This document shows positions 1 to 39,921 of a DNA stretch of 64,000 nt, in pieces (the stretch's first letter is position 1; each line of letters opens with the position of its first letter). Under the pieces are notes generated by a model that was not told the DNA's origin, did not search any database, and saw only the letters and a program-made list of their open reading frames with translations. The translations under genes and the position numbers were made by a program. The stretch comes from Obrimoposthia wandeli (Eukaryota), in the NCBI GenBank assembly GCA_977020255.1, contig CDROCS010004943.1, positions 310,001 through 374,000 on the forward strand. The letters run 5' to 3'.

Positions 1-1319
1 TAAAAGATTTTGGTGATATTCGTATAAGTTATTTGGTCAATCTCAAAATCAAGTTCTCTTAGTAAAATCAAAAACACGTTCTTCAAAAATTTATCCAAAA
101 AATATCTGTCCCTTATCACTTTGAGCACTACTCACGTCAACCAGTGTATAGTTTTTTATATGATAGTACTCGACGCAACTTGGGAAACAAGATAATTCGC
201 GACAAAAATTAAAATTTTTGGTAAGTTTATATTTATTAAAAAATATATATAATTCTTTCAACTTTTATAATCTTTTTAGTTTTATATTTTACTATTATGT
301 CTTTAATAGATAAATGCACTCCAATTTATAGTTTTCAAAAACGAATCTTGATTTGTAAACCAGTTCAAATGAAAAATGTTAAAATCTATCTCAAAATATA
401 TTGTATTTGAGATGTGCTTCGTTTGTTGATTACTTTTTTAATATATTTGTCAGTGTTCAAAACTCTATCCGACAACAGCTAGTGTTTAGCCTTTATATAA
501 ACATAACTCCGAAAACCGAGAAAATATTTTTATATTAATATTACAACTGAATTGACTTACACAACTCAAATTGTAAAAGAAAATTAGAGAATGGAACTCG
601 ACTGTTTCGGAAAACAAAAATTATGTTTGTACTTACGAGACTTGTGCGCAAAGCTGCAAACACCTAAACTATATTATTTTATATTATACTTATGATATTA
701 ATCAAGGTAATATAAAAGTTCCTGAAACTTTATACTAATCACAAATTTACACAAAAATAAAATGTTGTTAGTTTTTTGAAATTGTAAATATTTTTAATGT
801 ATTAAAACTAAGATGATTTTCAAATAAGTTCAAATAACCCACAAGAAAATATTTCAAATCTATATGTATTCAAATTTACAAGTTATATCTATGTAATAAA
901 AATATAGACTAAAGCAATAAAATTAAACTAAATAAACGGCTTTTCTAGTTATTTTGTAAATTAGAATGCCATGTATACAATAAAATATATGATAATAAAA
1001 TTAATGTTTAATAAGCAAAGTAAATAAAATTATTACAATAGGTAAAAGAAAATATGAACACTAAATGTAAAAATGAAATAAATTGCGGCTAAAACTTGAG
1101 AAAATAAAATGAATCTTTTCTTATCAAAGTTAAATAAATTCTTACAATTAATAAAACTAAATTTTTAATGTCAAATGTTATAACCAAAAATAAATAGTGA
1201 CTAAAATGCAAGAAATAAAATTAATTTTAAATAAATTATTATAATAAATAAAATATTATTGTACAAAAACAAATAAATTACCTGTTGCTTGGTCGGGCTC
1301 ACTAAATTGTTAATAAGTC

Positions 1320-1420
1320 AAGATGAAAATTGAATTTAATTGAGAAATTGTTCTTGGGATCAAACTGTTTCAAATAATTTCTGGATCAAAAATTGTGTCT
1401 CTGCAGAAGAAATGCTGTTC
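1320..1420 (-). mobile_element. Possible non-LTR retrotransposon RT C-terminal remnant
   Basis: Minus-strand translation NSLIPRTISQLN resembles the NSF(I/F)PRT..LN tail of CR1/Rex-type RTs. It is a single motif and is deleted in copy B. Confidence 0.3.
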
Positions 1421-1952
1421 ATATACCAGAGGGAAATACACATGGAGAGATAGAGGAGCGAGTTAGGGACAGCACACACAACCACAAGTCTCAGTCAGGT
1501 AAGCTGGCAATGGAAATGTCAACTCCACTTTGTAGTGGACACAATTGCCGCTATTGAATGGCTATCTGCTTGGAAAGGAGATAAGACCTGGGTGTCAGGG
1601 GGCAAAATCTCCGAGACGGTGAGGCAAAGCGGCTGCAGCAGCGCATTCAGTGACTTGTTGGCAATCCCGTAATAATGGTTGGTAGGGAGGCATGAATATA
1701 GTTGGGCGGTTGGGCAGGCGGGAAATCCGAGAAGCTGCATCAACCGAGGCACAACATACACAACAGCAGCACAAGATCGGCTGCAGATACTGATGATGCC
1801 GTTGTTTCTGGAAGATGATTACGATGCCGTTCTCGCCGCATGAATGATAACGGAGGAATGTAGAGGAGAGAGACTGCTGCTACTGGGCGGCAAATCTTTG
1901 GTGGACAAAACCACTTTACTTTTTAGTCAGACTTATTTCTGGCATTTTAGCC

Positions 1953-2004
1953 ACCTCCCTGACGAGGCCAAGGTAGGCCGAAACAGGTTTATCATGTCGG
2001 AGTT
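1953..2004 (+). ncRNA. Type I minimal hammerhead ribozyme (Penelope/retrozyme class), copy A
   Basis: Stem I is CTCC 1955-1958 with GGAG 1999-2002. The core reads CTGACGA 1959-1965, stem II GGCC-aaggta-GGCC, GAAA 1980-1983, short stem III CA/TG and a GTC cleavage triplet at 1996-1998. Confidence 0.8.
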
Positions 2005-2137
2005 TGATTAAAGTATACCTTCCTGATTTTGGGCATTTCAGTAATGTCAATTTAAATTGACATAATTAATTCTAATATATATATATATTTTTTTAAATTC
2101 AAACATTTATGAAGTTATGTGATCTCGTGAGTTCACA

Positions 2138-2235
2138 TGACCTTGACCTACATGGCCTTGAAAAATCATGTATACTCGAGAGAATATGACCCACATAAAA
2201 TGACCTTGACCTACATTTTGACCTCATCATGACCT
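2138..2235 (-). repeat. TGACCT (AGGTCA) hexamer array; homolog at about 27610-27710
   Basis: Six perfect TGACCT hexamers at 2138, 2144, 2201, 2207, 2219 and 2230. Confidence 0.8.
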
Positions 2236-2439
2236 TAACTTGTCCTCATAACCCCTGGAGGCTTTGTTCCAAAAGTGCAACATCTACATACTCACTAGGT
2301 GGACATTTATCATGAAAAAAAATACATTTTCAGGATATAACCTAAAATTTAATTGGATCAACATGAAAGAAGATGTGAAAATAGGTTCAAAACATGTGAA
2401 ATATTTCTTAAACGAAAAAATACTTTACGTCATACAAAA

Positions 2440-2960
2440 ATACCTTTTTTACCTGAAACACCCCGACGAAATCACTACATAATAGTATTTTCCGACCTAT
2501 TACAAGATTGCTAGAGGTTTTACCAATACAAGATCACAAGGCTGTAACCATCGCAAAGGTTTTAGTTGTAAAAACAATTTTTACTTTTGGTGCACCTCGA
2601 AAGTCTTTAACTGACAAAGGTCCTGAATTCATAAATAATTTATTAGTATCAATAGCCGAAATATTTCAGATAAAAAAGATCAACACAACACCATATCACC
2701 CTCAAACCGATGGATTAGTAGAACGATTTAATATAACCCTCGAAGATATGATGGCATCATACACTAACAATAATCAAACAGATTGGGATTTACACATACC
2801 TCCATGCCTTTTTGTATATAGAACATCAGTACTGGCATCAACAGGAGAAACATCTTTTTACCTTATGTTCCTACATTATTACAACCTACCACTCAATACT
2901 TAGAAATACCTGAAAGCAAAATAGAAATTAGAGAAAGAATAAAACTAGCAAATTTGTCTC
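2440..2960 (+). pseudogene. Ty3/Gypsy integrase core (rve) remnant
   Basis: PETPRRNHYIIVFSD, frameshift, then TDKGPEF...TTPYHPQTDGLVERFNITL...DWDLHIPPCLFVYRTS..STGETSFYL (ORF 2508-2903). Confidence 0.88.
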
Positions 2961-2989
2961 TGTCTTTTTTATGTGTCTTTTTCGCAAAA

Positions 2990-3130
2990 TTTCTAAAATA
3001 TTTCTAAGTTGTGAAAATATTTTTTGTTGGGAAATTATTTTTAAATTTCTAAACTATAAAACAACTTTGAAAATATTCTGTGTATATTCTAGTACAAAAG
3101 GTTTTGTAAATAATTCTTTGTAAAATTTAA
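2990..3130. repeat. Dispersed ~140-bp AT-rich repeat (also about 22375-22510 and 28480-28620)
   Basis: ttctaaaatattt..aagttgtgaa...tctaaactataaaacaa...tattctagtacaaaa occurs three times. Confidence 0.8.
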
Positions 3131-3186
3131 GTTTTGAAAATGTTGAAATTTGCGAAAAAAATAATATTAAAACAAAAACATGGTCA

Positions 3187-3214
3187 TGGCACGTGCCACG
3201 GTTGCCATGGCAAC
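3187..3214. promoter_or_regulatory. Adjacent palindromes: E-box-containing TGGCACGTGCCA and RFX X-box-like GTTGCCATGGCAAC
   Basis: Perfect 12-bp palindrome at 3187-3198 and perfect 14-bp palindrome at 3201-3214. Copy at 28671-28698 reads GTTGCTATGGCAAC. Regulatory function is not shown. Confidence 0.45.
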
Positions 3215-5283
3215 AATACACACCTTACCACACGTATCATTGATTCAAATTACACAATTATAAAATATACCAAATAATTATAGGACAAATATTTTTATCC
3301 GTTATTGATATTTTCATGAAGGTTTTGCGCAAATTTATACGGAAAAATCCCCTTATCATGAACCGAAACTAAGAACACTGACTGTGTAATTGGCCATGCA
3401 TTTAAAGATGCCGTTAAATTTTTTAAAGAACCGCTCAAAAACTGCAGAGAATCTATAAATCTTAAACTGTAGAATTCAGTATATGCTGTTAAAGATAAAT
3501 ATTTCTCTGAAGTTTGAGGTACACATGAAATTTCTCAAGAGCTTAATGTACCCAACGCGTATTTAAGTATATGATGCAAATCATATTCTTTGAGATTATG
3601 AAACACGATGGGAATGCGTGGTTTTTAGGGAGTAGACGGCCAAGGTTACAGTGGTTGCATGCCGCTCCCAATTATCGCCCCGTAACATGATCGTGATCTC
3701 TGACTAACTTAGACTGGGTTTCACACAAATAACATAATCTACAAGAATTAAAATTAACCCAGTCTATGCCTGTCATGATCATTGCTTGATGAGCATTAAG
3801 ATCAATCCACGGTTTGTCAATTGTAGTTCCTAATTCTTCTAATTTTAACATTAAAACTAAAATACAATTTGGACCGGAAAATTTATGATACTGTGATAAA
3901 TATATTGGGGCATAAGATTAGTAGTCCTGCCGAAGCCGGTAAATGAATTCTCTCATACTGGTCGTGCAATGCTAGAATTGACTCAAAATCAGCATACACC
4001 CTGAATTCCACGGGTATGCATTTTGTCCAATCCCTGAATTTTAAATCCTTATCCTTAGGTATGCTGTATAGCGTATTGTCATCGGGATTCAGTGAACATA
4101 ATGTCAGATGTTTGTTGTAAGAGAGCTCGGATCGGAATCCATGTAAACATCTATGACACCACTTAGACCTTATCCTAACCGGTAAGGCTCCATTATCTAA
4201 ATTTAGAAGACGATGTAAACTGGGAATTGCAGCATAATATAATTTTTTCTTATGTTCGAGCAAAATTAAGTTTTTGCTCCTATAAATTACATCTACAAAA
4301 GGATTTTGAAAAATTTCTTCATCTGTTACATTAACTGGGATATCAGTATTGTATTTAAATACATTAATACTCAAGTTATTAAGATGTTCAAATCTTGATA
4401 TCGCAGTTAATTTAACATGAAAATCTATTCCATGATACTGCAATTCATTTATAAAATTAATTTATATTAAAAAAAAATATTAATTTATATATATTTACTA
4501 ACACGCTCTCTATGCTCAGTAATTACATCCCTTTTGAGGATGGCCATCACGCAATACAGAAAGCAAAGGTTATCACTGTTTTGTACGTTAACAATGGAAC
4601 GTGAAAGTTGAAGAGATCTAGGTGAAGGAATGTATGAACTCCCCGAAAGATATATCATGTCAGTGGACTTTTTTAAGAACAAAGCTAACATCGTGAATTC
4701 TAACTGGAGTCCATCCACTACTTAACTCGTTATAATTAGCAATTTTTTCATTTAGGTTTCTTCCAATTTCAGTTACAAAATTATCATAGAAAACAGTTGC
4801 TTTATGTGAAATTACCCAAGTTTTAGTCTCCTCATTGACATTTTAAAACTGCACTGTTGCGCAAAATTGAACCTTAGCCTGTCCTAATTTAGTCACTTCT
4901 GATTTTAAAAGATTTTCAATATTTGAATCTACACCTACGTTTAATAAAATTTCATTTCCTAATGACACCTTAACTATAACATATTTATTATTTAGGTGAT
5001 ACTCTATAGTAGCACTGTTTTCTCTACGTTTTTTGGGTGGGACCTTATTAAGAAATTGGCCTCGCCTCTTTCTTCCTACAGTCGCTGACAAACCTCTCCC
5101 TAATTGAAAGGGAAGACAATTAGTTATATTAATCGCAGCTGATGTAGACGATGCTGCTGTAATAGATGCTGCTGCAGATGATGAGACAGTGGCAGTTGTA
5201 GAGGCTGCATTTGAAGTTGGAGTATGCAAGGTAGAAGCTGACCTTGCCAATGAAGAAGATGGCTGTTGTAGAGGCTGATGCTG

Positions 5284-5331
5284 CTGAAATAAATATATTA
5301 AAAAAAATATATAATTTAAAAAAAAATTTAC
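5284..5331 (-). other. pPolB intron 3 (48 nt, phase 1)
   Basis: AGAG|gtaaattt...atttcag|CAGC. The intron is almost pure AT between ~50% GC exons. Confidence 0.8.
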
Positions 5332-5418
5332 CTCTAAGGCGTGCTAACATCGATGTAGGCACTCGCGATGGGGGAGGCATAGCTGTCGTAGCGGATGACG
5401 TCTGTATCAAGTTACTTC

Positions 5419-5497
5419 CTGAATAAAATATATAAAATAAAATATAAATAATTACAATTTTAAAAAAATTATCAGAAAAATAATTATAAAAAAGTAC
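5419..5497 (-). other. pPolB intron 2 (79 nt, phase 1)
   Basis: TTAG|gtactttt...tattcag|GAAG. The 87-nt exon 5418-5332 keeps frame (GSNLIQTSS...RLR). Confidence 0.8.
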
Positions 5498-5860
5498 CTA
5501 ATGAAGGCAATCCAACTGGAGCTGGAATGAAGTCCTCTTCATTGACGGTATCCATCTAGCTGTCTTCCGTTAACTCGACGAAATCGGATTCCTCGGTAGA
5601 GCAGGTGCAGTCTGGGAATCGCGCACCAATTGCACGATATCCCTCTTCTTGTTGTTGGCCGTGAAACAGAATAGGTGAGCTCGATGTTCACCGAAGAAGA
5701 CTCGAAACTCCTTCTCCTCCATTGTTCTGCAGAAGAGGCAGACGAAGAATTGAAACCCGCGAGACTTTGTCAGATAGAAGGCAGACATTATCTCCATACA
5801 GGTCTCTCCTCCATGCGGAGCTGAAGCACCACAATATGCTGGAAACAGGATACACGTAAT

Positions 5861-5907
5861 CTGAAATAATAAATATTAATAAAGAAATAATAAGTATAGA
5901 TTCTGAC
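5861..5907 (-). other. pPolB intron 1 (47 nt, phase 0) directly after the start ATG
   Basis: ATG|gtcagaat...tttcag|ATTACG. The homolog at 30644-30689 has the consensus donor ATG|gtaaga. Splicing extends ORF 5570-5797 by exactly 21 open codons. Confidence 0.82.
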
Positions 5908-5957
5908 CATAGTCAATATTTCAAATATTCGGGGATTTAAATGAAGAAAGTGTTTGC

Positions 5958-5999
5958 TTATATACTAAAATTTATGCACACATGCTCTTTTCCTATTGG
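5958..5999 (-). promoter_or_regulatory. Putative pPolB promoter (TATA and CCAAT)
   Basis: TATATAA on the minus strand at 5958-5964, 48 nt before the ATG, and CCAAT at 5995-5999. Both are conserved in copy 2 (TATA at 30740-30746). Confidence 0.55.
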
Positions 6000-6149
6000 A
6001 TTAAAACATTGAATTTTATTGAGAAGGATTGTTTATCTGTTATTGGTCGAAAACATTTTTTTTTATTCCTCCAATTAAAAGGCTTATTTGTAATTGAATG
6101 AAAAATTGAATTTTTAAATAATGAATTTCTTCAATTAGAAGAATTGTTT

Positions 6150-6636
6150 ATCTACATGTTAAATAATAATAAGATAGACTTAAACAATTTTTATATGCGC
6201 AATGGTCACCATGACTACGACATAGACAGCAAATATTTCGTGGAATTTTTAATAGGTGATCACGTGAAATATTTAAAGTATTCAACCTCAATTTGTGAAA
6301 ATATTTTTTAAAGTCTTATACTTTTTTGCCATCCATTTCATCTAAAACATAAAAAATTCCATTTTCTATATCAAAATTAGATTTTATTGTATCGAAAATA
6401 CATATTTCACAAAAAGCCTTATGTCCTTCTTTCCATTTTAATAAATGAAAATAATTAGTTAGATATAAATTAGTAAATTTTTTCTTATAATCTAAACTTT
6501 TAAACGGGATATCTATTTGAAATATGAAATGCAAAGTATGAAAAACGTTGCATACATCCATAATACATAATTCTTTTTTAATATAATCACCATTTTTGTT
6601 AATGAAAACCTCAAAATCTATGATATATTCCTGCAT
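6150..6636 (-). pseudogene. Polinton accessory DnaQ/DEDD-like exonuclease-fold protein with Cys/His tail, frameshifted
   Basis: IDFEVF..YIKKELCI..HFIF..YLTNYFHLLKWKEG, then after a frameshift CCLCRSHGDHCAYKNCL. This pattern is familiar from Maverick accessory ORFs. Confidence 0.6.
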
Positions 6637-6700
6637 AATTACTCAAATTTGTAGCAAATCCCATTGTTTATAACGAAAATAACCATTAATCAAAAATTTA

Positions 6701-6940
6701 TTAAAATAACAAAGTACTCAGTCTTTCATGTTCAGATTGGTATAAATTGTCAATTCTCCTATGAATATTAAAATAAATTATATTAAATGTAAACATACCT
6801 AAATATTTCGAAATTAAATTACGTATTTTATCTTCAACAATTTCCGGAGTATCATTTTCTGAAAAGTAATTTTTTTTATAATATTCCATTAAATCTGGAG
6901 ATAATTTAATGTATAATTTATTCCAATTTTTATTTTCCAT
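6701..6940 (-). CDS. Polinton small hypothetical protein (79 aa)
   Basis: Open ORF within the gene array. A disrupted homolog lies at about 31510-31750. Confidence 0.5.
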   Translation of the reverse strand: MENKNWNKLYIKLSPDLMEYYKKNYFSENDTPEIVEDKIRNLISKYLGMFTFNIIYFNIHRRIDNLYQSEHERLSTLLF

Positions 6941-7059: not shown

Positions 7060-8130
7060 AAAAAAAATTTTTTGTAGGAGGACCCTCTTAACCGCCGCTT
7101 GTTTCCTATCGACGGATAGTCTGAGAGTTGCCTCCTCTTAAATTTCCTCTACCAATTCGGCTTCTTATGTGAATAATTAAAATTATTAACTAATTATTAA
7201 CTAATTTATAATAATTTACCTCATATTTATCCGGAGTCGGTAGGTATCGCTGCTCACTCCTTGGATCATCCTGGTTACATTGACTCGCCAAGTACTGCGG
7301 TTCAATCAGCCTCTCCGCCGTGGTCACTGACGGTGCCAAATCCAGTTGAAGTTTCTAAAAATGAAATTAAAAAACATTTTAAATAAATTAACCTCATTCG
7401 TCGCCTTTATTCTCCTAACAGGACATATCGGAGATTGCGGCCTTATGAACGGACCAGGCACCTTTATTGTCGGCTATCGGAGTTGGTGTTGCAGAGGGAG
7501 TGAGACCATCCAAATCATCGGTGAACAGGCGCCACTCGTCTTCGTCCAATTCTGCACCATCGAATCGTTGGCTCCTGGGGCTCCGATACTTGGCTGTATC
7601 CATTCATCGATGAATGGAGTCAAGTCCTCCTCACCCTCCAACGGAACGTAATTGGTGAATAGCTCCTCGTCTGAGTCTGGTGCAAGTTCTATCTCCGGCT
7701 GAGACAGCAGGATCAATTTCCAGGGGCGTTTGATTGTCGCCTCAAAATTCTGAAAGAGATTGAATCTCCTTGCTGCTACTGCTGAAGTTGCCGGACGATT
7801 GGGTTTTGTGTTTTGCCTGGGAGTACAGTCTTCCCAATTCTCAATCGAATGCTGACTAGTCAGGTCAATATATTGGGATCTCTGTACCCCGCCTCTCACG
7901 TCCATTGGTTCTTCTTTTGGAGTTGAGCTGGCCAATGGGGCTTCTTCTTCCAACAGCTCCGCTCTTGCTGCTGCTTCTCCTTCGTCTCCTTCGCTCACCA
8001 CCGACGAGTCTTGACTAAGTAAGTCAATGTATTGCGCCGGTGGTGGCGTTCGCTGCTGTACTGGAGAGAGATCCCCATTTAGTTGAACCTCCATCTCTTC
8101 GTCTAGGTCAACGTTGTTGAAAATAGGCAT
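7060..8130 (-). pseudogene. Polinton terminal-proximal spliced acidic disordered protein ('gene X')
   Basis: GC-rich exons at 8130-7393, 7354-7220 (135 nt) and from 7164. Introns are 7355-7392 and 7165-7219 (acceptor mutated here, intact in the 40464-40507 copy). Two frameshifts. Two QYIDL(L/T)SQ motifs. Confidence 0.75.
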
Positions 8131-8185
8131 TCTTGATTATTGATTCTTGATTTTGATTAATGAAAAATAATGAAAAGAGGTCTTA

Positions 8186-8212
8186 TTATATACAAATGAA
8201 ATGCCGTCCAAT
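8186..8212 (-). promoter_or_regulatory. Putative gene X promoter (TATA and CCAAT box)
   Basis: TATATAA on the minus strand at 8186-8192, 56 nt before the ATG, and a CCAAT/ATTGG at 8208-8212. Confidence 0.5.
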
Positions 8213-8504
8213 AAAAGCAGGTTATTCAAATAATTTATTTGAAAAGTCCATAGGCTTTTATCAATTTTTAACTACTTTTGAATGCGAGAATGTCATTGGA
8301 TAAAAAAAATATTTTATTTAAAAATAGTATTATTTTCTTAAGTTTTTGTTGCTTAAGTTCAACGTCCAATGAAAACGTATTATTCAAATAATTTATAGAA
8401 TTTTATTAATTTTTGTTGATGTTTGAATACATGTATATCTTTGGATTTAAAATAGTAATATTTTCTCGATCGTACATGTTTGAATGGTATAAATGTTTTT
8501 CCAG

Positions 8505-8635
8505 AGGTCATTAAAGGTCAAGTTAAGGTCATGACCTCATGAGGTCAAGGTCATTTAAAGTCATCATGAGGTCAAGGTCATTTAAGGTCATGATGACTCA
8601 TTCTATAACTCATCGATGGTTCATCGTATGACTCA
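8505..8635. repeat. AGGTCA half-site array plus two TGACTCA sites in the Polinton subterminal region
   Basis: Nine perfect AGGTCA/TGACCT hexamers in 8505-8590. TGACTCA at 8594-8600 and 8629-8635. Confidence 0.75.
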
Positions 8636-8719
8636 TCCTACGACTCAACGATAACTCATCCGAATAAAATGAAATAAAATGTTGAAATCATTTCCAATTT
8701 ATGTAGTTAATGATTTAAA

Positions 8720-9000
8720 TTTTTTGCGACCCTATATATGTATTGCTCGTTAAACTACCGCAGGCCCGGAGGGCACGTGTTGGCCCACTAGACGGCTTCT
8801 CAGGACCTTCCTCACTTTTTTGGGAGCATTATGAGATTTTCAATTTTAAAGGGTGTTATATGGGGTTAATTAGTTATTGTGAGTGTTGGCCCAACACTGT
8901 TGGGGTGGGGTAAAATATTTCACTCCACACACATGCTCAGTTTTAAAGGACAGTGGAAGGAGGGGGTGTGAATTAGACCAGACACATCCACATACTTACT
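8720..9000. mobile_element. Polinton subfamily-2 right end (subterminal region and TIR)
   Basis: Ends ...gacacatccacatacttact at 9000 (reverse complement AGTAAGTATGTGGATGTGTC) and matches 40860-41121. The element extends inward to about 3220. Confidence 0.85.
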
Positions 9001-9305
9001 ATATTTAGTTAAAGTAAAATTTATCTGCAATATGCGTAAAGTTCGCCTTCCACTACTCAATTCACTGTAATTGACAATTTTTTCATCCAATTTTTGCGAT
9101 ATCTTGTTCAAACACTCATCATCATACAACACGGTTATTGTTATTGATAGTTTTTTGATATAATTGAATGTCTGATACACCTGATGTGGTAGGATTTGAT
9201 AGTTTCGTGATAGCCAGTGAGGATGGACTTTGTATCCTTGCTGATGTGGAAGGACTTTGGTGTGTCATGGCATACGATATAAATGGTATTTGGTGTGTTA
9301 CCTGT
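9001..9305 (-). pseudogene. Fragment of a second, divergent Polinton pPolB N-terminal region
   Basis: TVLYDDECLNKISQKLDEKIVNYSELSSG..QINFTLTKY aligns with TVFYDNFVTEIGRNLNEKIANYNELSSGW in the 4700-4800 region. It is preceded by S/T/P-rich sequence and cut at TKY by the subfamily-2 TIR. Confidence 0.65.
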
Positions 9306-9309
9306 ATAA

Positions 9310-9618
9310 AGATATAGAATTATGGGCTGCAAAAATCCTATATTATTCTCAACTACTTCATTGAAGATTCGTATCGAGAAAATTCAATCTGTAACGATAT
9401 CTTCAAGTCTTGGAAAATCAATAAATTTACACAAACTTTCACGTAAAGTATCATGTATATATGAGCCAGAATTATTTCCAACTTTACAGTTAAACAAGTT
9501 CAACCCTATGTGTGTAAATATATTTTCTACCGGAAAAGTTGAAATTTTAGGTATCAAATCTTTAAACTATAAACATCAAGTCAAATCAATAATGAATCAT
9601 ATTGAATATTGTATATGA
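9310..9618 (+). CDS. TATA-binding-protein-like protein, second repeat (5' truncated)
   Basis: RIMGCK...KIQSVT..INLHKL..IYEPELFPTL..VNIFSTGKVEILGIK matches TBP repeat 2 (KIQN..YEPELFPGL..IFVSGKVVLTGAK). Confidence 0.85.
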   Translation, partial: RYRIMGCKNPILFSTTSLKIRIEKIQSVTISSSLGKSINLHKLSRKVSCIYEPELFPTLQLNKFNPMCVNIFSTGKVEILGIKSLNYKHQVKSIMNHIEYCI

Positions 9619-9704
9619 TTGTATATGATTGGTTAAAACTGTACATATAAACTTCATGCAGAGTAACTCACCTAAATCTTTATACATGGAATACAAAATG
9701 TCAT

Positions 9705-10052
9705 TTGAATTTGAATTACAAAATGAATACATTGAAGAACAGTTGGATATTTACATTTTCATTACCAGTATCCATTAGTTTAGCCAAATTCAATCATAAA
9801 CTGAATGATATTACAATGTCAGATATGGAAAACTTGAATAAAACACTGGAGCGAATGAATATCAAATATGCTTTGGAAAAACCGTTTATGTTTTTAAGAT
9901 GCGAGGATTTCTTTGACCGATTTGGAAAGAAAATAAACTTTGAATATGATTGTGAATGGTTGATTGATATATCAATACAAGGATTCAAAGAGAATAAAGA
10001 ATGTCAAATCACTCCAATTTGGAAGGTGAAGTCTGCTCATCAGTGTTTTTAA
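9705..10052 (+). CDS. Polinton hypothetical protein (115 aa)
   Basis: Open ORF co-oriented between the TBP-like and ATPase genes. No family recognised with confidence. Confidence 0.55.
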   Translation: MNLNYKMNTLKNSWIFTFSLPVSISLAKFNHKLNDITMSDMENLNKTLERMNIKYALEKPFMFLRCEDFFDRFGKKINFEYDCEWLIDISIQGFKENKECQITPIWKVKSAHQCF

Positions 10053-10177
10053 TACATGTTATAACTAGCCTTTATTATTCTTGAATAATATACATAATAA
10101 TGTATTTTAAACTTTTAATAAATATACTTATCAGAAAAATTGTTGAAGTAGTAACATAAACAATGTGTTTTTTCTAG

Positions 10178-10802
10178 AAATGTTTTATTATGATTTTAAA
10201 AAAATAATGTAGTTTATCAGGTAGTAGGGCCTTCTGGTAGGGGAAAGACGTCTTTTGTTTGAAAATTATTGAAAAGTAATTTATTTAAATATTCCTTTAA
10301 AAGGATTTATTGTCATCAAGGTGGTGCCTTTTGTGATTTAAAAAATGTTGATGTAATTGATGGTTTTGATTAAAATTGGTCAAATAGATTGAAAAAGGGA
10401 GATGTAATTGTAGTAGATGATTTATATCAAGAAGCCAATAAAGAAGCCGATTTTAATAATCTGTTTACTAAAATTGCTCGTCATAGGGAAGTTACTGTAC
10501 TCTTTATAACACAAATCCTGTTTCATCAATGAGGAGCTCACAGAACACGTAATATTAATGTACAATATTTGATATTATTTAAAAATCCTCGGGATCAAAC
10601 TGTTGTGGATTTTATTGCTAAACAGACTTATTCACATAATAAACGCTTTCTTATTGATTCGTTTCATGATGCAACAAAGAAGGCACATGGGTATTTATTC
10701 ATTGAATTTACACAAGATTGTCTTAATGATTTTAGAATTTCTACTGACTTATTTAATCCTCACGGTTATATTGTATATAAACAAAAAATAATTAACAGCT
10801 AA
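10178..10802 (+). pseudogene. Polinton packaging ATPase (A32/FtsK-HerA family)
   Basis: Walker A GPSGRGKT at 10227-10250, Walker B VIVVDD, then LFTKIARHREVTVLFITQ..YLILFKNPRD..DAT..HGYLFI. Internal stops. Confidence 0.92.
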
Positions 10803-10829
10803 ATCAAAATGTATTTTAAAAAGGTTTTG

Positions 10830-11170
10830 ATACCACATGAGAGATGATAAGTTAAAAAACTAATTTCCAACGTTTTATTTCAAAGAAAATCCAATCCATA
10901 TATTAATATACTATTAAAGACACTTAATTCTCGTAGAATGAGAATTTTAAAGTATTTTTCGACATTTGTAATAGATGATATTATTAAAGTATTCATTAAA
11001 ATAATAAGCGGTACAGTAAAAGTCGGTAAATAGGCTAATGCATTAAAGCAGTATAAACAACCACTTTTAAGAACCAAGAATAATTTAGGTAAACGTAAAA
11101 TATTTCTTTAACAATCAGGTGGTATTCTTCCGGTTTTAGCACCAATACTAGCATCACTAGCACTGTGCGT
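10830..11170 (+). pseudogene. Polinton small basic core/pVI-like protein with xGG motif
   Basis: IIKVFIKIISGTVKV..LKQYKQPL..KRKIFL*QSGGILPVLAPILASLA matches the conserved Maverick QxGGFLP.LL.PIL ORF. Confidence 0.65.
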
Positions 11171-11249
11171 TATAAGTTCATTGTTTTAATGGGTCTTGGA
11201 TCATCAATGTTGCTAAATTTCAATTTTAATTTGAAATCTTCATTCTGTA

Positions 11250-11400
11250 ATGGAAAAGACGATGTCAATATGGTTCGATCCAGAGAATCCAGTTGGATTC
11301 ACAGGAGTCTCAAAGTTGGCAGAAAAGACAAAGTCAATATAAATGTTTGCTCAGAAATATCTGAGAAATTAAATGGCCTACAGTTTCAACAAACCAAAGG
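11250..11400 (+). pseudogene. Polinton integrase N-terminus (truncated by deletion)
   Basis: MEKTMSIWFDPENPVGFTGVSKL...AYSFNKP, homologous to the start of the 14698-15696 integrase. Confidence 0.75.
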
Positions 11401-11750
11401 AAAGCTGGATTAACTGAATTTTCTTTCAATTACTCTCCAATATTAATTCAAAGTGGAACTGAAATTGAATATATTACTCAACAAGAAGTTGATAAAGTAA
11501 TTGATGTAACTTTACTATTTGATATGGGAGAATTATATTTGGCGCGTATTAAGCCAGGGATAATTTAACAATATTTTTAAATAAAGAGAATCGAATATAA
11601 ATTGCAGGACAAGGAGATGATTTTGAAATAGTTTTTAATGATGACATTATTGCAGAACAATATGGATTTCCGACTGACACTAATAAAAGAAAATATATGT
11701 TTTCAGGAATTATGGATAAACAAATTAAAATCAAACTTTAATATAACTAT
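11400..11750 (+). pseudogene. Polinton minor capsid (penton) fragment fused to the integrase by deletion
   Basis: KAGLTEFSFNYSP matches WEAALT*FSF of the 13915-14690 penton, followed by IAEQYGF (LA..LGF motif). Confidence 0.55.
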
Positions 11751-23138: not shown

Positions 23139-24050
23139 ATGAGTCAAACAATCTGTGTAACAAATTTCAAAGAGGACAATAAAAACTCAGTCGCTTATAT
23201 CTCAGGTGTCTGGGAACGACAGATGATGTTGATGGACTTACCCACTGGGAACCCTACATATGTTCCAAGAGAGCCTCAGGATTCATCGTGCCCAAAGACA
23301 GAGACTCCAATCTTGAGGACGTCCCCAACACGACTGAGCGAGCGAGCCGCATTAGAGGCGGACCCTCTTTGTGAGCGCGTGAGTCGTCTGCTCGTGATCT
23401 ATACTGGCGGAACTATCGGCATGAACAGCTCCGACGAGGGCTACACGCCTGAAGCAGGCTTCCTGAGTTCTCAGCTGCACCGTAGTCAGGAGGGCTCGCG
23501 AGCACTGCACGACCCGGAATTCATGGCTCGCTACACGCAGAACCTGGATCGGGAGCACGACTGCGTCTTCGCTTTGCCGCCACTGGTGATATCCGGAGCT
23601 CGAGTCCGGGTTCTGTATGCGGTGTGGGAGTACGCCCAGCTGCTGGACTCGTGTGACATCATCAGAGACGACTACCTGCGCATCGTGCGTGATATTCGTG
23701 ACAACTACGAGCACTACGACGGCATTGTAGTGCTACATGGAACTGACACGATGGCGGAGACCGGTTCAGTGCTCTCCTTCTTGCTGGAGAGCCTCACAAA
23801 GCCTCACTGGCTCCCAGATCCCGCTCTTCGAGCCTGGAAGTGACGGCAGCAACAACTTCCGGCGGCGTCAAAGGCCTCTACAAGACCGGCATTGTGCTGC
23901 GCAACTATGGTGTTCTCTCCGGTGCAGACATGACAATCAAGGCTGCGCACGCCAAGCTAGCCTTCGTGTGTGCGCGTTCAGATTAGAGTCTGCAGCAGAA
24001 GAAAGACGCTCTCATCGGCAGTCTTCGCGGGGAACTGACTCCGCAATAGC
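23139..24050 (+). pseudogene. L-asparaginase (type I/ASPG-like catalytic domain), intronless, frameshifted and internally deleted
   Basis: LLVIYTGGTIGM at about 23388-23423, LLDS.D, HGTDTM at 23736-23753, frameshift at about 23800 into LTGSQIP..SDGSNNF, deletion junction at about 23860, then GVLSGADMT..AAHAKL, stop at 23982, LRGELTPQ*. GC-rich. The 5' part (23139-23310) may be unrelated fused DNA. Confidence 0.92.
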
Positions 24051-25387: not shown

Positions 25388-27427
25388 TATTTGAGGTTGG
25401 TAGACTATTTGTTCGTTGTTTATTTTTAAAATAGGTTGTTCTGGTACCACCACTGTGTAAGTAAATCGTTATTTGTGATTTAGGTCTTTAAATCGGTTTC
25501 TCACTGGAGTCTGTTCTAACTAATCTTGTTTGAATTCGTCTCCAGTGAAGGCTAGCGCTACGTTTTTGTTTATTTATTTTGTGTGTCTGTTTTGTGATAG
25601 TTTTTTGGGTTTGTGTTGTTAGTATTTTATTTTAAGTTTCAAAAAAAATATTGTGATAAATGAAAAATGTGTAATGGGTACTGAAATTAAAAAGATTTCG
25701 ATGATATTCGAAAAAGTTATTTGGTCAATCTCAAAATCAAGTTCTCTTAGTAAAATCAAAAACACGTTCTTCAAAATTTTATAAAAAAAAATATCTGTAC
25801 CTTATCACTTTGAGCACTACCCACGTCAATCAGTGTATAGTTTTTTTTTATGATAGCGCTCGACGCAACTTGGAAAACAAGATAATTTGCAACAAAAATT
25901 CAAATGTTTGGTCAGTTTTATATGTATTCCAAAAATATATATAATTCTTTCAACTTTTATTATCTTTTAAGTTTTTATTTTACTATTACGTTTTTAATAG
26001 ATAAATGCACTCCAATTTATAGTTTTCAAAAACGAATCTTATCTAGTAAACCAGTTCAAATGAAAAATGTTAAAATCTATCTCAAAATTTATTGTATTTG
26101 AGATGTGCTTCGTTTGTTGATTACTTTTTTAATATATTTGTCAGTGTTCAAACTCTATCCGACAACAGCTAGTGTTTAGCCTTTATATGAACAGAACTCC
26201 GAAAACCGAGAAAAATATTTTATATTAATATTACAATTGAATTGACTTACACAACTCAAATTATAAAATTAGAGAATGGAACTCGACTGTTTCGGAAAAC
26301 AAAAATTATGTTTTTACTAATGAGACTTGTGCGCAAAGCTGCAAACACCTCAACTATATTACACCTGAAACTTTATACTAATCACAAATTTACACAAAAA
26401 TAAAATGTTGTTAGCTTTATGAAATTGTAAATATTTTTAATGTTGTAAAACTCAGATGATTTTCAAATAAGTTCAAATAACCCACAAGAAAATATTTTGA
26501 ATCTATATGTATTCAAATTAACAAGTTATATCTATGTAATAAAAATATAGACTAAAGCAATAAAATTAAACTAAATAAACGGCTTTTCTAGTTATTTTGT
26601 AAATTAGAATGCCATGTATACAATAAAATATATGATAATAAAATTAATGTTTAATAATCAAAGTAAAGAAAATTATTACAATAGGTAAAAGAAAATATGA
26701 ACACTAAATGTAAAAATGAAATAAATTGCGGCTAAAACTTGAGAAAATAAAATGAATCTTTGGTTATCAAAGTTAAATAAATTCTCACAATTAATAAAAC
26801 TAAATTTAACTAAAAATAAATAGTGACTAAATTGCAAGAAATAAATTGAATTTTAAATAAATTATTATAATAAATAAAATAGAAGAACTGCTGTTCATAT
26901 ACCAGAGGTAAATACACATGGAGAGATAGAGGAGCGAGTTAGGGACAGCACACACAACCACAAGTCTCAGTCAGGTAAGCTGGCAGGGGGAATGTCAACT
27001 CCACTTTGTAGTGGACACAATTGCCGCTATTGAATGGCTATCTGCTTGGAAAGGAGATAAGACCTGGGTGTCAGGGGGCAAAATCTCCGAGACGGTGAGG
27101 CAAAGCGGCTGCAGCAGCACATTCAGTGACTTGTTGGCAAGCCCGTAATACTTGTTGATAGAGAGGCATGCATATAGTTGGGTGGTTGGGCAGGCGAGAA
27201 ATCCGAGAAGCTGCATCAACCGAGGCACAACATACACAACAGCAGCACTAGATCAGCTGCAGATAGTGATGATGCCGTTGTTTACGGATGATGATTACGA
27301 TGCCGTTCTCGCCGCATGAATGATAACGGAGGAAGGTAGAGGAGAGAGACTGCTGCTACTGGGCGGCAAGTCTTTGGTGACAAAACCACTTTACTTTTTT
27401 GTCAGACTTATTTCTGACATTTTAGCC

Positions 27428-27479
27428 ACCTCCCTGACGAGGCCAAGGTAGGCTGAAACAGGATTATCATGTCGGAGGT
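27428..27479 (+). ncRNA. Type I minimal hammerhead ribozyme, copy B
   Basis: Stem I ACCTCC/GGAGGT (6 bp), CTGACGA at 27434-27440, stem II GGCC/GGCT, GAAA, CA..TG, GTC at 27471-27473. Confidence 0.78.
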
Positions 27480-27899
27480 TGATTAAAGTATACCTCTCTG
27501 ATTGTGGGCATTTCAGTAATGTCAATTTAAATTGACATAATTAATTCTAATATATATATATATATATTTTTAAATCCAAACACTTATGACATCATGTTGT
27601 CTCGTGAGGTAACATGACATTGAAAAATCATGTATACTCGAGAGAAATATGACCCACATCAAATGACCTTGGCCTACCTTTTGAACTCATCATAATCTTA
27701 ACTTGTCCTCATAAACCCTGGAGGCTTTGTTCCAAAAGTGCAACATCTACATACTCACTAGGTGGACATTTATCATGAAAAAAATAAACATTTTCAGGAT
27801 ATAACCTTAAATTTAATTGGATCAACATGAAAGAAGATGTAAAAATAGGTTCAAAACATGTGAAATATGTCATAAACGAAAAAATACGTTACGTCATAC

Positions 27900-28420
27900 A
27901 AAAATATCTTTTTTACCTGAAACACCCCCAGGAAATCACTACATAATAGTATTTTCTGACAATTTACAAGATTGCAAGAGGATTTCCCAACACAAGATCA
28001 CAAGGCTGTACCATCGCGAAGGTTTTAGTTAAAAAACAATTTTTACTTTTAGTGCACATCGAAAGTTTTTAACTGACAAAGGTCCTGAATTCATAAATAA
28101 TGTATTAGTATCAATAACCAAAATATTTCAGATAAAAAAGATCAACACAACACCATATCACCCTCAAACCTATGGATTAGGCGAACGATTTAATATAACC
28201 CTCGAAGATATGATGGTATCATAAACTAACAATAATCAAACAGATTGGGATTTACACATACCTCCATGCCTATTTGCATATAGAACATCAGTACTGGCAT
28301 CAACAGGATAAATACTTTTTAACTTATGTTCCTCAGAGATCCTCAAATTCCTATCGATCTCACATTATTACAACATACCACTCAATACTTAGAAATACCT
28401 GAATACAAAATAGAAATTAG
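27900..28420 (+). pseudogene. Ty3/Gypsy integrase remnant, duplicate
   Basis: Homolog of 2440-2960 with extra stops and frameshifts. Confidence 0.85.
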
Positions 28421-28699
28421 AGAAAGAATAAAACTAGCGAATTTGTCTCTGTCTTTTTGATGTGTCTTTTTCGGAAAATTTCTAAAATATTTGTAAGTTG
28501 TGAAAATATTTCTTGTTTGGAAATTATTTTGAAATTTTAAACTATAAAACAAATTCGAAAATATTCTGTGTATATTCTAGTACAAAATGTTTTTTTAAAT
28601 AATTCTATGTAAAATTTAAGTTTTCAAAATGTTGAAATTTGCTAAAAAAATAATATTAAAAACATGGCCATGGCACGTGCCACGGTTGCTATGGCAACA

Positions 28700-30692
28700 A
28701 TACACACCTTACGACACGTATCATTGATTCAAATTACACAATTATAAAATATACCAAATAATTATAGGAAAAATATTTTTATCCGTTATTGATATTTTCA
28801 TGAATGTTTTTGCAAATTTATACGGAAAAATCCCCTTATCATTAACCGAAACAGGAAACACTGACTGTGTAATTGGCCATGCATTTAAAGATGCCATTAA
28901 ATTTTTTAAATACCGGTCAAAAACTGCAGAGAATCTATGAATCTTAAACTGCAGAATTCAGTATATGCAGTTAAAGATAAATATTTCTCTGAACTTTGAG
29001 GTACACATGAAATTTCTCAAGAGCTTAATGTACCCAACGCGTATTTAAGTATATGATGCAAATCATATTCTTTGAGATTATGAAACACGATGGGAATGCG
29101 TGGTTTTTAGGGAGTAGACGGCCAAGGTTACAGTGGTTGCATGCCGCTCCCAATTATCGCCCCGTAACATGATCGTGATCTCTGACTAACTTAGACTGGG
29201 TTTCACACAAATAACATAATCTACGAGAATTAAAATTAACCCATTATATGCCTGTCATGATCATTGCTTGATGAGCATTAAGATCATACCACGGTTTGAC
29301 AATTGTAGTTCCTAATTCTTCTAATTTTAACATAAAATCTAAAATACAATTTGGATCTGAAAATGTATGACACTGTGTAATATTGGGCCTAAGAATAGTA
29401 GTCCTGTCGAAGCCGGTAGGTGAATACTCTCATACTGGTCGTGCAATGCTAGAATTGACTCAAAATCAGCATACGCCCTGAATTCCACAGGTATGCATTT
29501 TGCCCAATCCCTGAATTTTAAATCCTTATCCTTAGGCATGCTATATAGCATATTGTCATCAGGATTCAGTGAACATAATGTCAGATGTTTGCTGTAAGAG
29601 AGCTCGGATCGAAATCCATGTAAACATATATGACACCACTTACACCTTATCCTAACCGGTAAGGCTCTATTATCCTCGCCTCTTTCTTCCTACAGTCGCT
29701 GACAATTCTCCTCATAATTAAATGGGAAGACAACTATTCATATTGACAGTTGATGCTGCTGAAGTTGAGTCAATCGCAGCTGATGTGGAAGGTGCTGCTG
29801 AAGAAAGTGCTGCCGCAGATGTATAGGCAACGACGCTTGTAGAGGCTGCATTTGAGGTTGGAGTAGATTAGGTAATTATTACCTCTAAGGTGTGCAAACA
29901 TCGATGTAGGAGGCATAGCTGTCGTAGCGGATGACGACTGTATCAAGGTATTTCCTGAATAAAAAATAAAAAATATATAATTACAATTTTAAAAAATAGT
30001 CAGAAAATAGTAATGAAAAAATATCTAATTAAGGCAATCCCACTGTAGCAGGTTGAAAGTCCTCTTTATTGACGGAATCCATCCAGCTGTCGTCCGTTAA
30101 CTCGACGAAATCGGATTCCTCGATGGTCTGTAACCAGCTGTTGTCGCTCCACTGAGGCTGCTCCATCTCGAATCTTGACTGGGTAATATTTTCCATCCAG
30201 TCATTGTTCGAGAATTGGGTTGCTGGTGCCAACTCCTCAAAATTCTTCTTGGGATATGATCTTTATCCACTCATTGTTAGTTATTTGAGTGGATGAGGCA
30301 GCTGCAGAATCAGAAGACGGCAGATAAGGACCAATCGCAGGACCGAAAACGGGTTGAACGACTGCAACTGGAACAGGGCAAGAGCTGGAGCGACCTACGA
30401 ATCGCGCACCAATTGCACGATATCCCTCTTCTTGTTGTTGAACTTGAAACAGTATAGGTGATCTCGGTGTTCACCGAAGAAGTCTCGAAACTCCTTCTCC
30501 TCCATAGTTTTGCAGAAGGGGCAGACGAAGAATACCCGGCCATGAGACTTTGTCCGATAGTAGACGGAGATTATCTCCATGCAGGACTCTCCTCCATGCG
30601 GAGGCGAAGCACCACAATAAGCTGGAAACAGGTTACACGTAATCTAAAAAATAAATATTAATAAAGAAATAAAAAATAAAGTTTCTTACCAT
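28700..30692 (-). pseudogene. Polinton pPolB copy 2, spliced 5' end, internal deletion or junction at about 29665
   Basis: ATG at 30692, intron 30644-30689, Cys/His domain, four W-containing acidic repeats, intron-2 acceptor at 29955, intron-3 donor at 29882. The equivalent of about 4198-5059 is missing. YADFES and RDHDH motifs are present. Confidence 0.88.
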
Positions 30693-30954
30693 ATTCATTA
30701 TTTAAAATAGTCGAGGATTGAAATAAAAAAAGTGTTTGCTTATATACTAAATTTTATGCACACATGCTCTTTTCTTATTGGATGAAAATATTGAATTTAT
30801 TTTTCCTTTAAGAAGGATTGTTTAACTGTTATTGGTTGATAATATTATTTTTAATATATTTTTTCCTCAAATTAAAAGGATTGTTCATTTGTATTTGTAA
30901 TTGGATGAAAATTTTATTTTGTAAATAATGAATTTCTCCAATTAGAATAATTGT

Positions 30955-31437
30955 TTATCTTCATGTCAAGTAATAAGATAGACTTAAATATTTTTTATAT
31001 GCGCAATGGTCACCATGATCACGATATGGACAGCAAATATTTCGTGGAATTTTTAATAGATGATCATGTGAAATATTTAAAGTATTCAATCTCAAATTTA
31101 GAAAATATTTTTTTAAAGTCTTATACTTTTTGCCATCCATTTCATCTAAAACATAAAAATTTCATTTTCAATATCAAAATTAGATTTAATGGTATTGAAA
31201 ATACATATTTCCCAAAAAGCCTTATGCCCTTCTTTCCATTTTAATAAATGAAAATAATTAGTTAGATATAATTAGTAAATTTTTCTTATAATCTAAACTC
31301 TTAAACAAGATATCTACATGAAATATGAAAGGCAAAGGATGAAAAACGTCGCATATATCCATAATACATAATTCTTTTATAATATAATTTCCATTTTTGT
31401 TAATGTAAGCCTCAAAATCTATGATATATTCTTGCAT
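30955..31437 (-). pseudogene. DnaQ-like accessory ORF, copy 2
   Basis: MQEYIIDFEAYINKNGNYIIKELCI, homolog of 6150-6636, frameshifted. Confidence 0.6.
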
Positions 31438-31819
31438 AATTACCCAAATTTGTAGCAAATCTCTTTGTTTATAACGAATAAAAAAAATATTAATCAAAAA
31501 TTTATACTAATAACAAAGTACTCATGATTCACTTTTCACGTTAAGATTGGTATATATTGTCAATTCTTCTATGAATATTAAAATAAAATATATTAAATCT
31601 AAACATACCTAAATATTTCGAAATTATATTTACATATTTTATCTCCAACAATTTCCAAAGTATCATTTTTTGAGAAGTAATTTTTTACATAATCTTCCAT
31701 TAAATCTGAAGATAATTTAATGTATAATTTATTCCAATTTATTTTATCATCGATTTTATAAAAAACAATATATATAAAATTGTTTATATTTAGTATGCTT
31801 ATGTAAAATATTTAGACAA

Positions 31820-34439: not shown

Positions 34440-35200
34440 AGTTATTTGAATCATAAAAATTGAACTAAATTATTTTGAATCATAAAATTGAACTACTATT
34501 TTGAATCGTAAAGAACTACTATTTTGAATCGTAAAAATTGAACCGCTAACTATTTTGAATCATAAAAATTGAACTAACTATTTTGAATCATAAAAAATTG
34601 AACTAACTGTTGTTTGAATCGCAGATTGAAGTGAATCGTTAAAAAGAATTTAAGTAAAATTTGAACCAACTATTTTGGAATCATAAAATTGAACTTACTA
34701 TTTTGAATCGTAAATTGAACCAACTATTTTGAACTAAATTGAACTACTATTTTGAACTCGTAAATTGAAACTTAAGCAACTATTTTGAATCATAAAATTT
34801 AATCCAACTATTTTGAATCATAAAATTGAACTAACTATTTTGAATCATAATTCGAATCCAATCATTTTAAATCATAAATTGAAACCTACTATTTTGAATC
34901 GCAAAATTGAACCAACCATTTTGAATCATAAAATTGAAGTAACTATTTCGGAATCATAAAATTGAACTACTATTTTGAATCTGTAAATTGAACCAACTAT
35001 TTTGAATCATAAAATTGAACTAACTATTTTGAATCATAAAAAATTGAACTACTTTTGGCTTCGAACGTAAAATCGTCCTGACTATTTTGAATCGTAAAAT
35101 TGAACTAACTATTTTGAATCATAAAATGAACTAACTATTTTGAACTACAAAATTGAAACTAACTGTTTGAAATCGAAAAAGTTAAATATTGGAATCATAA
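34440..35200. repeat. Minisatellite, ~27-28 bp unit aaaattgaactaactattttgaatcat
   Basis: More than 20 head-to-tail diverged units with no unique spacers. Confidence 0.92.
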
Positions 35201-37712: not shown

Positions 37713-39921
37713 TATTTACTTAACCATTATTATACAATAACTAAATCTTTTACACAAACGAATTTCTCGGAATAAACGTATTTCAAAATTGTGTTCATTG
37801 ACGAAATCCTGGCCTTTCTCACTAATTGAATACCTTTTTCTACAACAATAATTCATGATATAAGAGGATCAAGGGAACTCCGATTTAGTAGCTGGTTCCC
37901 TCTGAAATTTACCTCTTATAACATTAAATGAGTACGATGTGTGGCTTTCTTCATTTTTATATGGGTTGAAATTCTTTCATTGCGAAAAGCATAAATGTAC
38001 ATCCAAATCTTTGAGTTTGTGACAAGGAGCAATTTTCAGTTGTTTGTTTTCATTTTTTTTGTTTTTCAAATACTGATTATCGAAAATTATTACTTTTCAG
38101 ACCGACTTTTGTTATCTAATTTATGTAAACTGGTTTCCTTTGATGACGGGACTTTTCAACGCTCTTCTTAGTGCATGGATATATCTGTAGATTTCTCTGC
38201 TAAGTCGATAAAGACCTGTCGAAACTCAACGATGATAATCTTCAAACATCACCTATACTAAATTAACAATAAATTTGTAAATCTGAATGAACTTGATGTA
38301 GACACAGAAACTTTCAAATCAATGACGACACCTCAAATTATCGGTATTTTAACGTATGCGCACACAGACCCACACAAAGAAGGTATTGTATGTGATGTAG
38401 CCTGTATTTTTATTATAGAAAAATATATTTCAACTGACGGTGACAATTAAAGTGAACAGTAAAATAATTTTTCAAGAAATTAATGTTTTAGGGACTTAAA
38501 ATAATGTTACACTGTAATTTGTTTAGTTTCTAAAAATTACTATTTTTAAGATAGATGTATTCTTAAAGGTGATAATGAAGCTATTTCATATTTAATTTAA
38601 ACGAAATTTATATGAAAATTATGATAATTTCGATATTAATGATGAAAATAATCCTGAATATGCTGATATTTATGAAACATTGTGGAATTCAAAATATGTT
38701 TCAACAATAAATTGTTTAACATAAAATAATAAAATAAGTTTATAAGTTTTTCTTTTAATGTAGTTTAATAAATTTTGACGATATTTTTAACATTTTTGTA
38801 TTATACATTTTACCTTCGTAGATAATAATGTATAAAAAATCCAATGTCGACTTGATTGATATCACCAATGAGATAAGTCAGGTGTGGAGCATTCTATGGG
38901 AAATTTTAGTTGATTTCACAAATAATTTTCATCAATAACTATAGATAATTAAAGTAATGTTGTCAGAAAATGTCGCTTTTTTGCTTCAAAATATCAAACG
39001 GGATTAGCAGGATAATGCTACGGAAAATAAGATACTATTATAATGAAAATATTACTTTTCAAAACAGATAAAATTTAACCTTTTTTACTTTAAAACAAAT
39101 ATTATGTCAGCAATTTGAAATTTTATGTGACTTTCCATGTTGGGAAAGTGCATCTACGTCAAACAGTTTTGCCAACCCTTCTATTTAGACGAACAACTGA
39201 ATATAGCACCATATTTTCAAAAAAGTGTTTAAATGATTTTTATGAATTTTTAATAAATTAACAAAATACATTAAGTAGTTCATGTATTTCTTATTTTTGT
39301 TTTAAAACGACAGTTCTTGTGTTCTTAAGGCAGCAGAAGCGTGGTTCCCAGATTACGAACGAAAACAGACCGTGTATCTATATTGCCCTACTGACAAGAC
39401 CGAGGTAAAAGCCTAATTAAACAAGAGATTATGAGTGTTACTTAACTGTTGAATGTGAAATAATAAGAAGTCTCTCATAATGAGTTTACTATTAATTGTG
39501 CGTTGCAACTACTTGAGACTTCGCGTTTATGTTAAATAGTACAAAAACGCTTTGTCAGCAAAACTTTCCTCGGTTTTCATCTCACCAAAGCTTCTTTAAT
39601 GATCTTAATGAGATATTTTTTAATTAAAACTACTCCTGTTTTTTTAATTGTATATATACAGGGGTACGCAAAAGTATCTTTACTCTGTTGTTATATGATG
39701 ATGATTTAGTGATGATGTAATGGTGAAATAATCTTCTTTTTGCCTATATGTATTATTAAACGAATATGAAGTGATCGATCCTAAACTGCATTTTAGACTT
39801 ATTAATGTCAATTCCTCTTAATTTATGTCAAACTACTTACAAAACATTCTTGTAAATTATTCAGAAACAATTTTATGTTTACCAGTTTGTGGGTGCAGTA
39901 TTATATGTGTAGTTCATTTAT

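Follow-up and report, generated by a model that had tools for sequence, protein, structure and literature searches.

Why should a gene resembling that of the TATA-binding protein (TBP) stand among the genes of a Polinton, and could it act on them? The window, a 64,000-nucleotide stretch of the Obrimoposthia wandeli genome, raises this question at 9310-9618, where an earlier note had placed a TBP-like gene in a Polinton array. We know of no account of how Polinton capsid genes are switched on. Virions of the vertebrate Mavericks have not been observed according to PMC8097293.

A TBP remnant in a decayed Polinton fragment

The frame at 9310-9618 is open over 102 aa and matches the Pfam TBP family PF00352 (E 9e-12) above the curated cut-off: it scores 45.1 bits, a sibling copy 64.4, against a cut-off of 22.9. 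Its best PDB sequence match has an E-value of 4e-12. These matches bear out the TBP identity proposed in the earlier note, and the strings cited there, YEPELFP, IFSTGKVEILGIK and RIMGCK, are all found in the frame. The remnant, a copy of a gene that we call mini-TBP, sits in a decayed Polinton fragment (~8996-11722) in which a PolB 5' remnant on the minus strand is followed by TBP, an SSB-like ORF, an ATPase, a core-like ORF, an integrase piece and a presumed-penton piece; the element also holds four sites of the word YATAAACR. As had been stated, TBP is co-oriented with the ATPase, the core-like ORF and the 5' fragments of the integrase and presumed penton. The features, in window coordinates, are:

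8959..9268, minus strand: PolB 5' remnant, internally deleted, found by tblastn/blastn with sibling PolB; head-to-head with TBP
9305..9311, plus strand: TATA remnant TATAAAG of the TBP gene, identified by sequence; now adjoins the deletion junction
9310..9618, plus strand: mini-TBP remnant, comprising the last strand of repeat 1 and the whole of repeat 2; 5' part deleted
9312..9313, no strand: deletion junction, ~155 bp lost, placed by blastn and pairwise alignment with siblings; break common to L002
9568..9575, plus strand: YATAAACR site TATAAACA, within the TBP 3' end and upstream of the SSB-like ORF
9711..10052, plus strand: companion SSB-like ORF, 93% to the sibling ORF
10155..10162, plus strand: YATAAACR site CATAAACA, ~35 nt upstream of the ATPase ATG
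10190..10784, plus strand: packaging ATPase, broken (split frames), 83% to sibling; sibling matches Pox_A32, E 3.6e-6
10776..10783, plus strand: YATAAACR site upstream of the core-like ORF
10803..11186, plus strand: basic core-like ORF, broken; a homologue has a weak Adeno_PX match (E 0.023), a lead only
11052..11059, plus strand: YATAAACR site upstream of the integrase region
11190..11396, plus strand: integrase 5' fragment, catalytic core gone; sibling matches rve, E 2.5e-10
11401..11729, plus strand: presumed minor capsid (penton) 5' fragment, labelled from position and not from a database match

The identity of PolB comes through another locus, L106 (DNA_pol_B_2, E 3.5e-23), and shared matches; the own-family PolB had no direct match in Pfam or the PDB. 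Besides the sibling integrase and ATPase matches listed above, the Polinton gene set of protein-primed PolB, integrase, A32 ATPase and adenain protease includes Peptidase_C5 in L076 (E 1e-7). For the capsid, a homologue matches Capsid_N (E 0.007) and is 30-33% identical to ORFs of this genome, with no match in the PDB. The companion ORF, for which no Pfam or PHROG match was found, is likely a single-stranded DNA-binding protein of the T7 gp2.5/Enc34 type, judging from its model (pLDDT 95.8; VIA Z 7.1-7.2, rmsd 3.0, 101-104 aligned; Foldseek E 0.05). Its OB fold (window 9711-10052; L035:386-751) came closest to those of T7 gp2.5, Enc34 SSB and ASFV CP312R (Z 6.8-7.2), and some families in this genome carry two paralogues of the ORF.

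Compared with siblings that have 144-aa ORFs (~92% DNA identity), the window copy has lost its start codon and most of repeat 1 through the ~155-bp deletion, and it is likely dead. In sibling L003, TATATAAAG lies 35 nt upstream of the TBP ATG. L002, ~26.5 kb upstream, has the same deletion at 96% identity, and therefore it was duplicated in its broken state. The duplications at 721-6712 and 26364-31513 are large and have a period of ~25 kb. Because the 144-aa ORF, its repeat 1 reduced, is uninterrupted in 17 of 28 sibling loci (L003-L030), the observation that only RIMGCK is left of repeat 1 holds for the window copy and L002 as a lesion, and does not hold for the lineage. The shorter linker that had been described is a genuine lineage feature, since in the model strand 43-49 leads to strand 62-75 without an intervening helix. 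Both the truncation of the window copy and the reach of the family far beyond this lineage were missed in the earlier note.

Terminal inverted repeats with a target duplication are not present around the window fragment. A piece of another Polinton family (7426-8999) directly adjoins the PolB remnant, an arrangement that points to a nested insertion; this piece ends in a terminal-repeat-like sequence (8918-8999) that is repeated near 39920-41130. Elsewhere in the window, a GC-rich intronless asparaginase-like ORF stands in AT-rich DNA at 23139-23843 on the plus strand (also L043:3835-5247; Pfam E 1e-23). It has a longer copy upstream and is possibly a retrocopy or a transferred gene. A 27-nt unit forms a tandem array at 34657-35185.

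The mini-TBP family and its origin

The genome of O. wandeli contains at least 150 mini-TBP matches (150/150 scored, from 28,930 candidates). Among 72 candidate relatives of the 144-aa protein, 62 were near relatives, most of them 145-155 aa long, and a profile search returned 903 clusters at E≤1e-10; some of these are cellular TBPs, and 6 in the best 150 of the 903 were judged by eye to be cellular or canonical TBPs. A Polinton marker was present within 1.5 kb at all 30 of the 30 top loci of this genome. When loci of this genome were picked by their capsid gene, TBP lay within 10 kb in 8/10, and the other two were truncated or interrupted. Polinton markers also accompanied 41/75 metagenome loci, many of which are short and 6 of which hold cellular or giant-virus TBPs; for family loci of at least 3 kb, 25/31 were beside Polinton genes, 4 had only an SSB-like ORF and 2 had nothing. 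Other copies thus adjoin Polinton genes, in keeping with the linkage that had been proposed from the window. The TBP gene occupies several positions within elements, with and without a PLA2-like gene, and no SSB-like ORF was detected beside TBP in PLA2-carrying elements. Polintons are defined by terminal inverted repeats starting with AG and a 6-bp target duplication, and two TBP-carrying copies in this genome (L144/L145 and L034/L035) have AGTAG termini and 6-bp target duplications. We conclude that mini-TBP is a real, widespread Polinton-encoded gene, a variant of the viral-TBP kind.

Sequence databases name the relatives of mini-TBP plain 'TBP', which hides the family, and in the atlas the nearest clusters of one homologue are TBP. 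Two Polinton contigs, L160 and L161, one with a mini-TBP, are filed in bacterial MAG records, probably as contaminants introduced by binning. Adintoviruses and Polintons as described by Starrett et al. 2021 (PMC8502044) have the same element architecture. In that paper, a TBP label occurs in one figure legend, in the section on non-animal datasets; there was no other mention in the main text, and the word 'TBP' was not found in the searched part of the supplement. A main-text term search of other Polinton papers did not find TBP, TATA or TFIID. The literature searched, with subscription journals and Repbase lying outside it, held no description of the mini-TBP family or of YATAAACR.

The model of the 144-aa protein (56 sequences; pLDDT 95.5) contains both beta repeats, with helices in repeat 2 only. 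All 44 Foldseek matches in the PDB at E≤0.001 were TBP entries (TMq ~0.7), and the best of them aligned over the whole chain (E 3e-9, TMq 0.73). As modelled, mini-TBP is a two-repeat saddle without the repeat-1 helices; in the alignment, PLA2-carrying elements seem to retain these helices. Residues were tabulated for 140 representatives, using yeast numbers from Table 1 of PMC12529657. Of the intercalating Phe residues, which the earlier note had singled out for a check, the equivalents of F116 (119/120), F190 (136/137) and F207 (132/132) are retained and that of F99 is Pro (103/108), so that three of the four are kept. The N69 equivalent is also retained, and by sequence the stirrup Glu residues are present at Glu94 (119/137) and Glu96 (134/137). 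At the remaining DNA-face positions, the equivalent of V71 is Asn, V122 is Arg (121/121), T124 is Met (134/134), N159 is Ser or Thr (138/138), V161 is Thr or Ser (136/138) and L205 is Asn (132/132). Repeat 1 of TBP contacts the 3' half of the TATA box, where the unusual C of YATAAACR falls.

Thus, like cellular and archaeal TBP (PF00352; PDB 1ytb, 1cdw, 2z8u), mini-TBP has a two-repeat saddle, three intercalating Phe, the Pro after F190, the first Asn and the YEPE stirrup. It differs from them in its length (144 aa versus a ~180-aa core, at 21-29% identity), in lacking the repeat-1 helices in this lineage, in the change of F99 to Pro, and in six altered DNA-face positions, five of which have become polar.

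In a 52-row tree, whose group labels are our own assignment from sequence and context, a branch with 100/100 support separated 30/30 element TBP rows from host TBPs and from those of other eukaryotes, archaea and giant-virus-like sequences. Row L090, with 32% over 101 columns and a long branch, seems to be in the wrong frame; the tree includes it, and the 56-sequence residue table does not. Identity between the element TBP and three host TBP/TRF rows was 21-22%. The gene therefore does not group with host TBP, and the clade and the low identity uphold the proposal that this lineage carries its own divergent TBP. Giant-virus (NCLDV) TBPs, which share the viral TBP fold and gave the best viral Foldseek matches, lie outside the Polinton clade; many giant viruses encode their own RNA polymerase. 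Because the stem branch is long (~2 changes per site) and the tree root is a midpoint, we name no donor for the mini-TBP gene. Values of dN/dS were 0.08-0.33 in 13/19 pairs, with dS saturated in 6, and 0.44 in a young family, on ORFs chosen for being open. The element TBPs are under purifying selection. In the host itself (L119-L122), two TBP genes stand head-to-head, and there are at least two TBP-like paralogues that are divergent and lack introns.

Promoter-like words in TBP-carrying elements

The earlier note had taken TATATAA as the promoters of the element. Instead, the element-wide word is YATAAACR, and canonical TATA precedes the TBP gene itself, where it was found at -20 to -70 in 27/47 dereplicated loci (shuffle mean 8.3, maximum 16). 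A TCATT-like sequence is often present near the TBP ATG. TBP genes without a nearby TATA share TGTTT(T/A)A ~45-60 nt before the ATG (L047, L049, L050, L079, L084, L086, L088, L091, L093), a putative second promoter type; TGTTTTA was not clearly enriched before other element genes.

In 13 virion modules, YATAAACR occurred 105 times in the sense and 5 times in the antisense direction, with ~14 expected, and 12/13 modules exceeded all 60 shuffles. The word was at chance in non-element DNA, and each of five PolB coding regions held 0-2 sites. Most sites (83/101) lie within 120 nt upstream of an ORF, and 34 of these 83 are 30-39 nt before the ATG, compared with 111/1162 random sites; at this spacing the leader would be very short, a point against the late-promoter reading. 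Protein constraint does not explain the word, since 46/111 sites are outside long ORFs, the remainder are in two reading frames, and the density of sites rises ~10-fold in the final 130 nt of coding regions (13 in 2,990 nt versus 9 in 21,115). YATAAACR was first noticed in the loci counted here, and it recurs in families fetched later, from this genome and one other contig. Directly upstream of the site before the ATPase in L100 is a tRNA-like sequence.

At 2/10 loci of this genome, both truncated or interrupted, YATAAACR occurred without TBP nearby. Three partial elements with no TBP detected (L161, L164, L166) had YATAAACR at chance, with 0-2 sites per region and, in L166, three further sites within a short tandem repeat; as the elements are incomplete, they make weak controls. 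Scans with ATPase and capsid alignments found no complete TBP-less Polinton in viral contigs, nor was one found in phages, and integrase and single-capsid scans together with the genome collection gave only partial elements as TBP-less candidates.

Possible roles of mini-TBP

Because YATAAACR stands before the capsid and packaging genes of TBP-carrying elements, these elements likely bring their own late-gene switch. The promoter-like word and the altered DNA face point indirectly to mini-TBP as a driver of transcription, and we think it somewhat probable that intact mini-TBP acts as a viral late-promoter factor, reading YATAAACR before the packaging, integrase and capsid genes. Early on, the mini-TBP gene would be transcribed by the host's TBP and Pol II from the canonical TATA and a TCATT-like initiator. 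The protein would then bind YATAAACR, where its remodelled, polar DNA face would accept C at positions 1 and 7, and through its retained acidic stirrup it would bring in host TFIIB and Pol II at a short promoter that each late gene has for itself. The loss of the repeat-1 helices would also take away surfaces on which host regulators of TBP act. Host TFIIB was seen only as separate exons. Our judgement is evenly divided on a broader proposal: that a broad group of Polintons evolved an orthogonal TBP-promoter pair, the 144-aa TBP recognising YATAAACR and using host TFIIB and Pol II to take the virion genes through an early-to-late cascade.

The working analogy is the herpesvirus vTBP (KSHV ORF24, EBV BcRF1, HCMV UL87), likewise a viral mimic of TBP whose DNA face is polar, and alike at most in its way of working. 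In beta- and gamma-herpesviruses, the vTBP goes with a modified TATA ~30 bp before late starts (PMC6541308; PMC12529657). KSHV ORF24 is polar at V122, T124, V161 and L205, a face that has been tied to late promoters (PMC12529657), and these are four of the positions that are changed in mini-TBP. ORF24 is a protein of 752 aa that binds Pol II directly, needs five partners and has four Phe and no TFIIB-binding acids, whereas mini-TBP is a bare 144-aa core with the TFIIB-binding acids and without an N- or C-terminal domain. The words also differ, YATAAACR in the elements and TATTWAA in herpesviruses. Against a late factor stands the loss of one intercalating Phe in mini-TBP, whereas ORF24 needs all four (PMC12529657).

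It is conceivable, although unlikely, that host TBP/TFIID reads YATAAACR as a weak TATA and that mini-TBP is a repressor or decoy, blocking the sites or titrating TFIIB, so that the element is kept quiet or host transcription damped. Host TBP tolerates changes at positions 1, 6 and 7 and uses TATAAACG at 27% in plant protoplasts (PMC10005294, Table 4), and therefore YATAAACR need not require a new reader; mini-TBP, moreover, has the acidic stirrup but lacks the repeat-1 helices and one Phe. However, C at position 7 is at ~1% in the plant TATA matrix (PMC10005294) and yet is fixed in YATAAACR, the TBP gene itself retains a canonical box, and the polar, mostly invariant DNA-face residues fit an altered specificity better than a decoy.

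Quite improbable is a role in replication or packaging, in which mini-TBP, along with the SSB, would bind an origin, the termini or single-stranded DNA while another factor reads YATAAACR. TBP often adjoins the SSB-like ORF and PolB, a divergent TBP of Giardia is reported to bind single-stranded DNA (PMC12209930), and ORF24 also aids replication (PMC6541308). Nevertheless, neither of the two terminal repeats bounded by target duplications contains YATAAACR, and the earlier suggestion that the protein binds the termini of the element gains no support from them; the position of TBP varies, PLA2-carrying elements have no detected SSB-like neighbour, and the stirrup Glu is retained. Slightly less credible again, YATAAACR might have no connection with TBP and instead signal polyadenylation or termination of the gene upstream, given its resemblance to AATAAA and its clustering at gene ends; but the base before ATAAAC is T or C in 121/156 cases and A in 17/156, many sites are within the upstream coding region, and their spacing is tied to the next ATG. 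That the gene is a recent retrocopy of host TBP, a passive passenger of one element family, would suit its lack of introns and the intronless TBP-like paralogues of the host. This candidate, to which we give next to no credence, is refuted by the 21-22% identity, the separate clade shared with metagenome elements and the purifying selection.

A dedicated TBP and a matching word make the switching of Polinton capsid genes testable with one small protein and one 8-bp motif. Mini-TBP is a natural minimal TBP whose specificity has likely changed, which makes it useful for studies of TATA recognition, and it might be usable as an orthogonal Pol II switch. If the orthogonal pair is real, it would do with a single protein what takes six in the herpesvirus late complex, having arrived there through convergent change to polar residues at the same DNA-face positions, and it would point to a helper-independent nuclear virus programme in these integrated elements.
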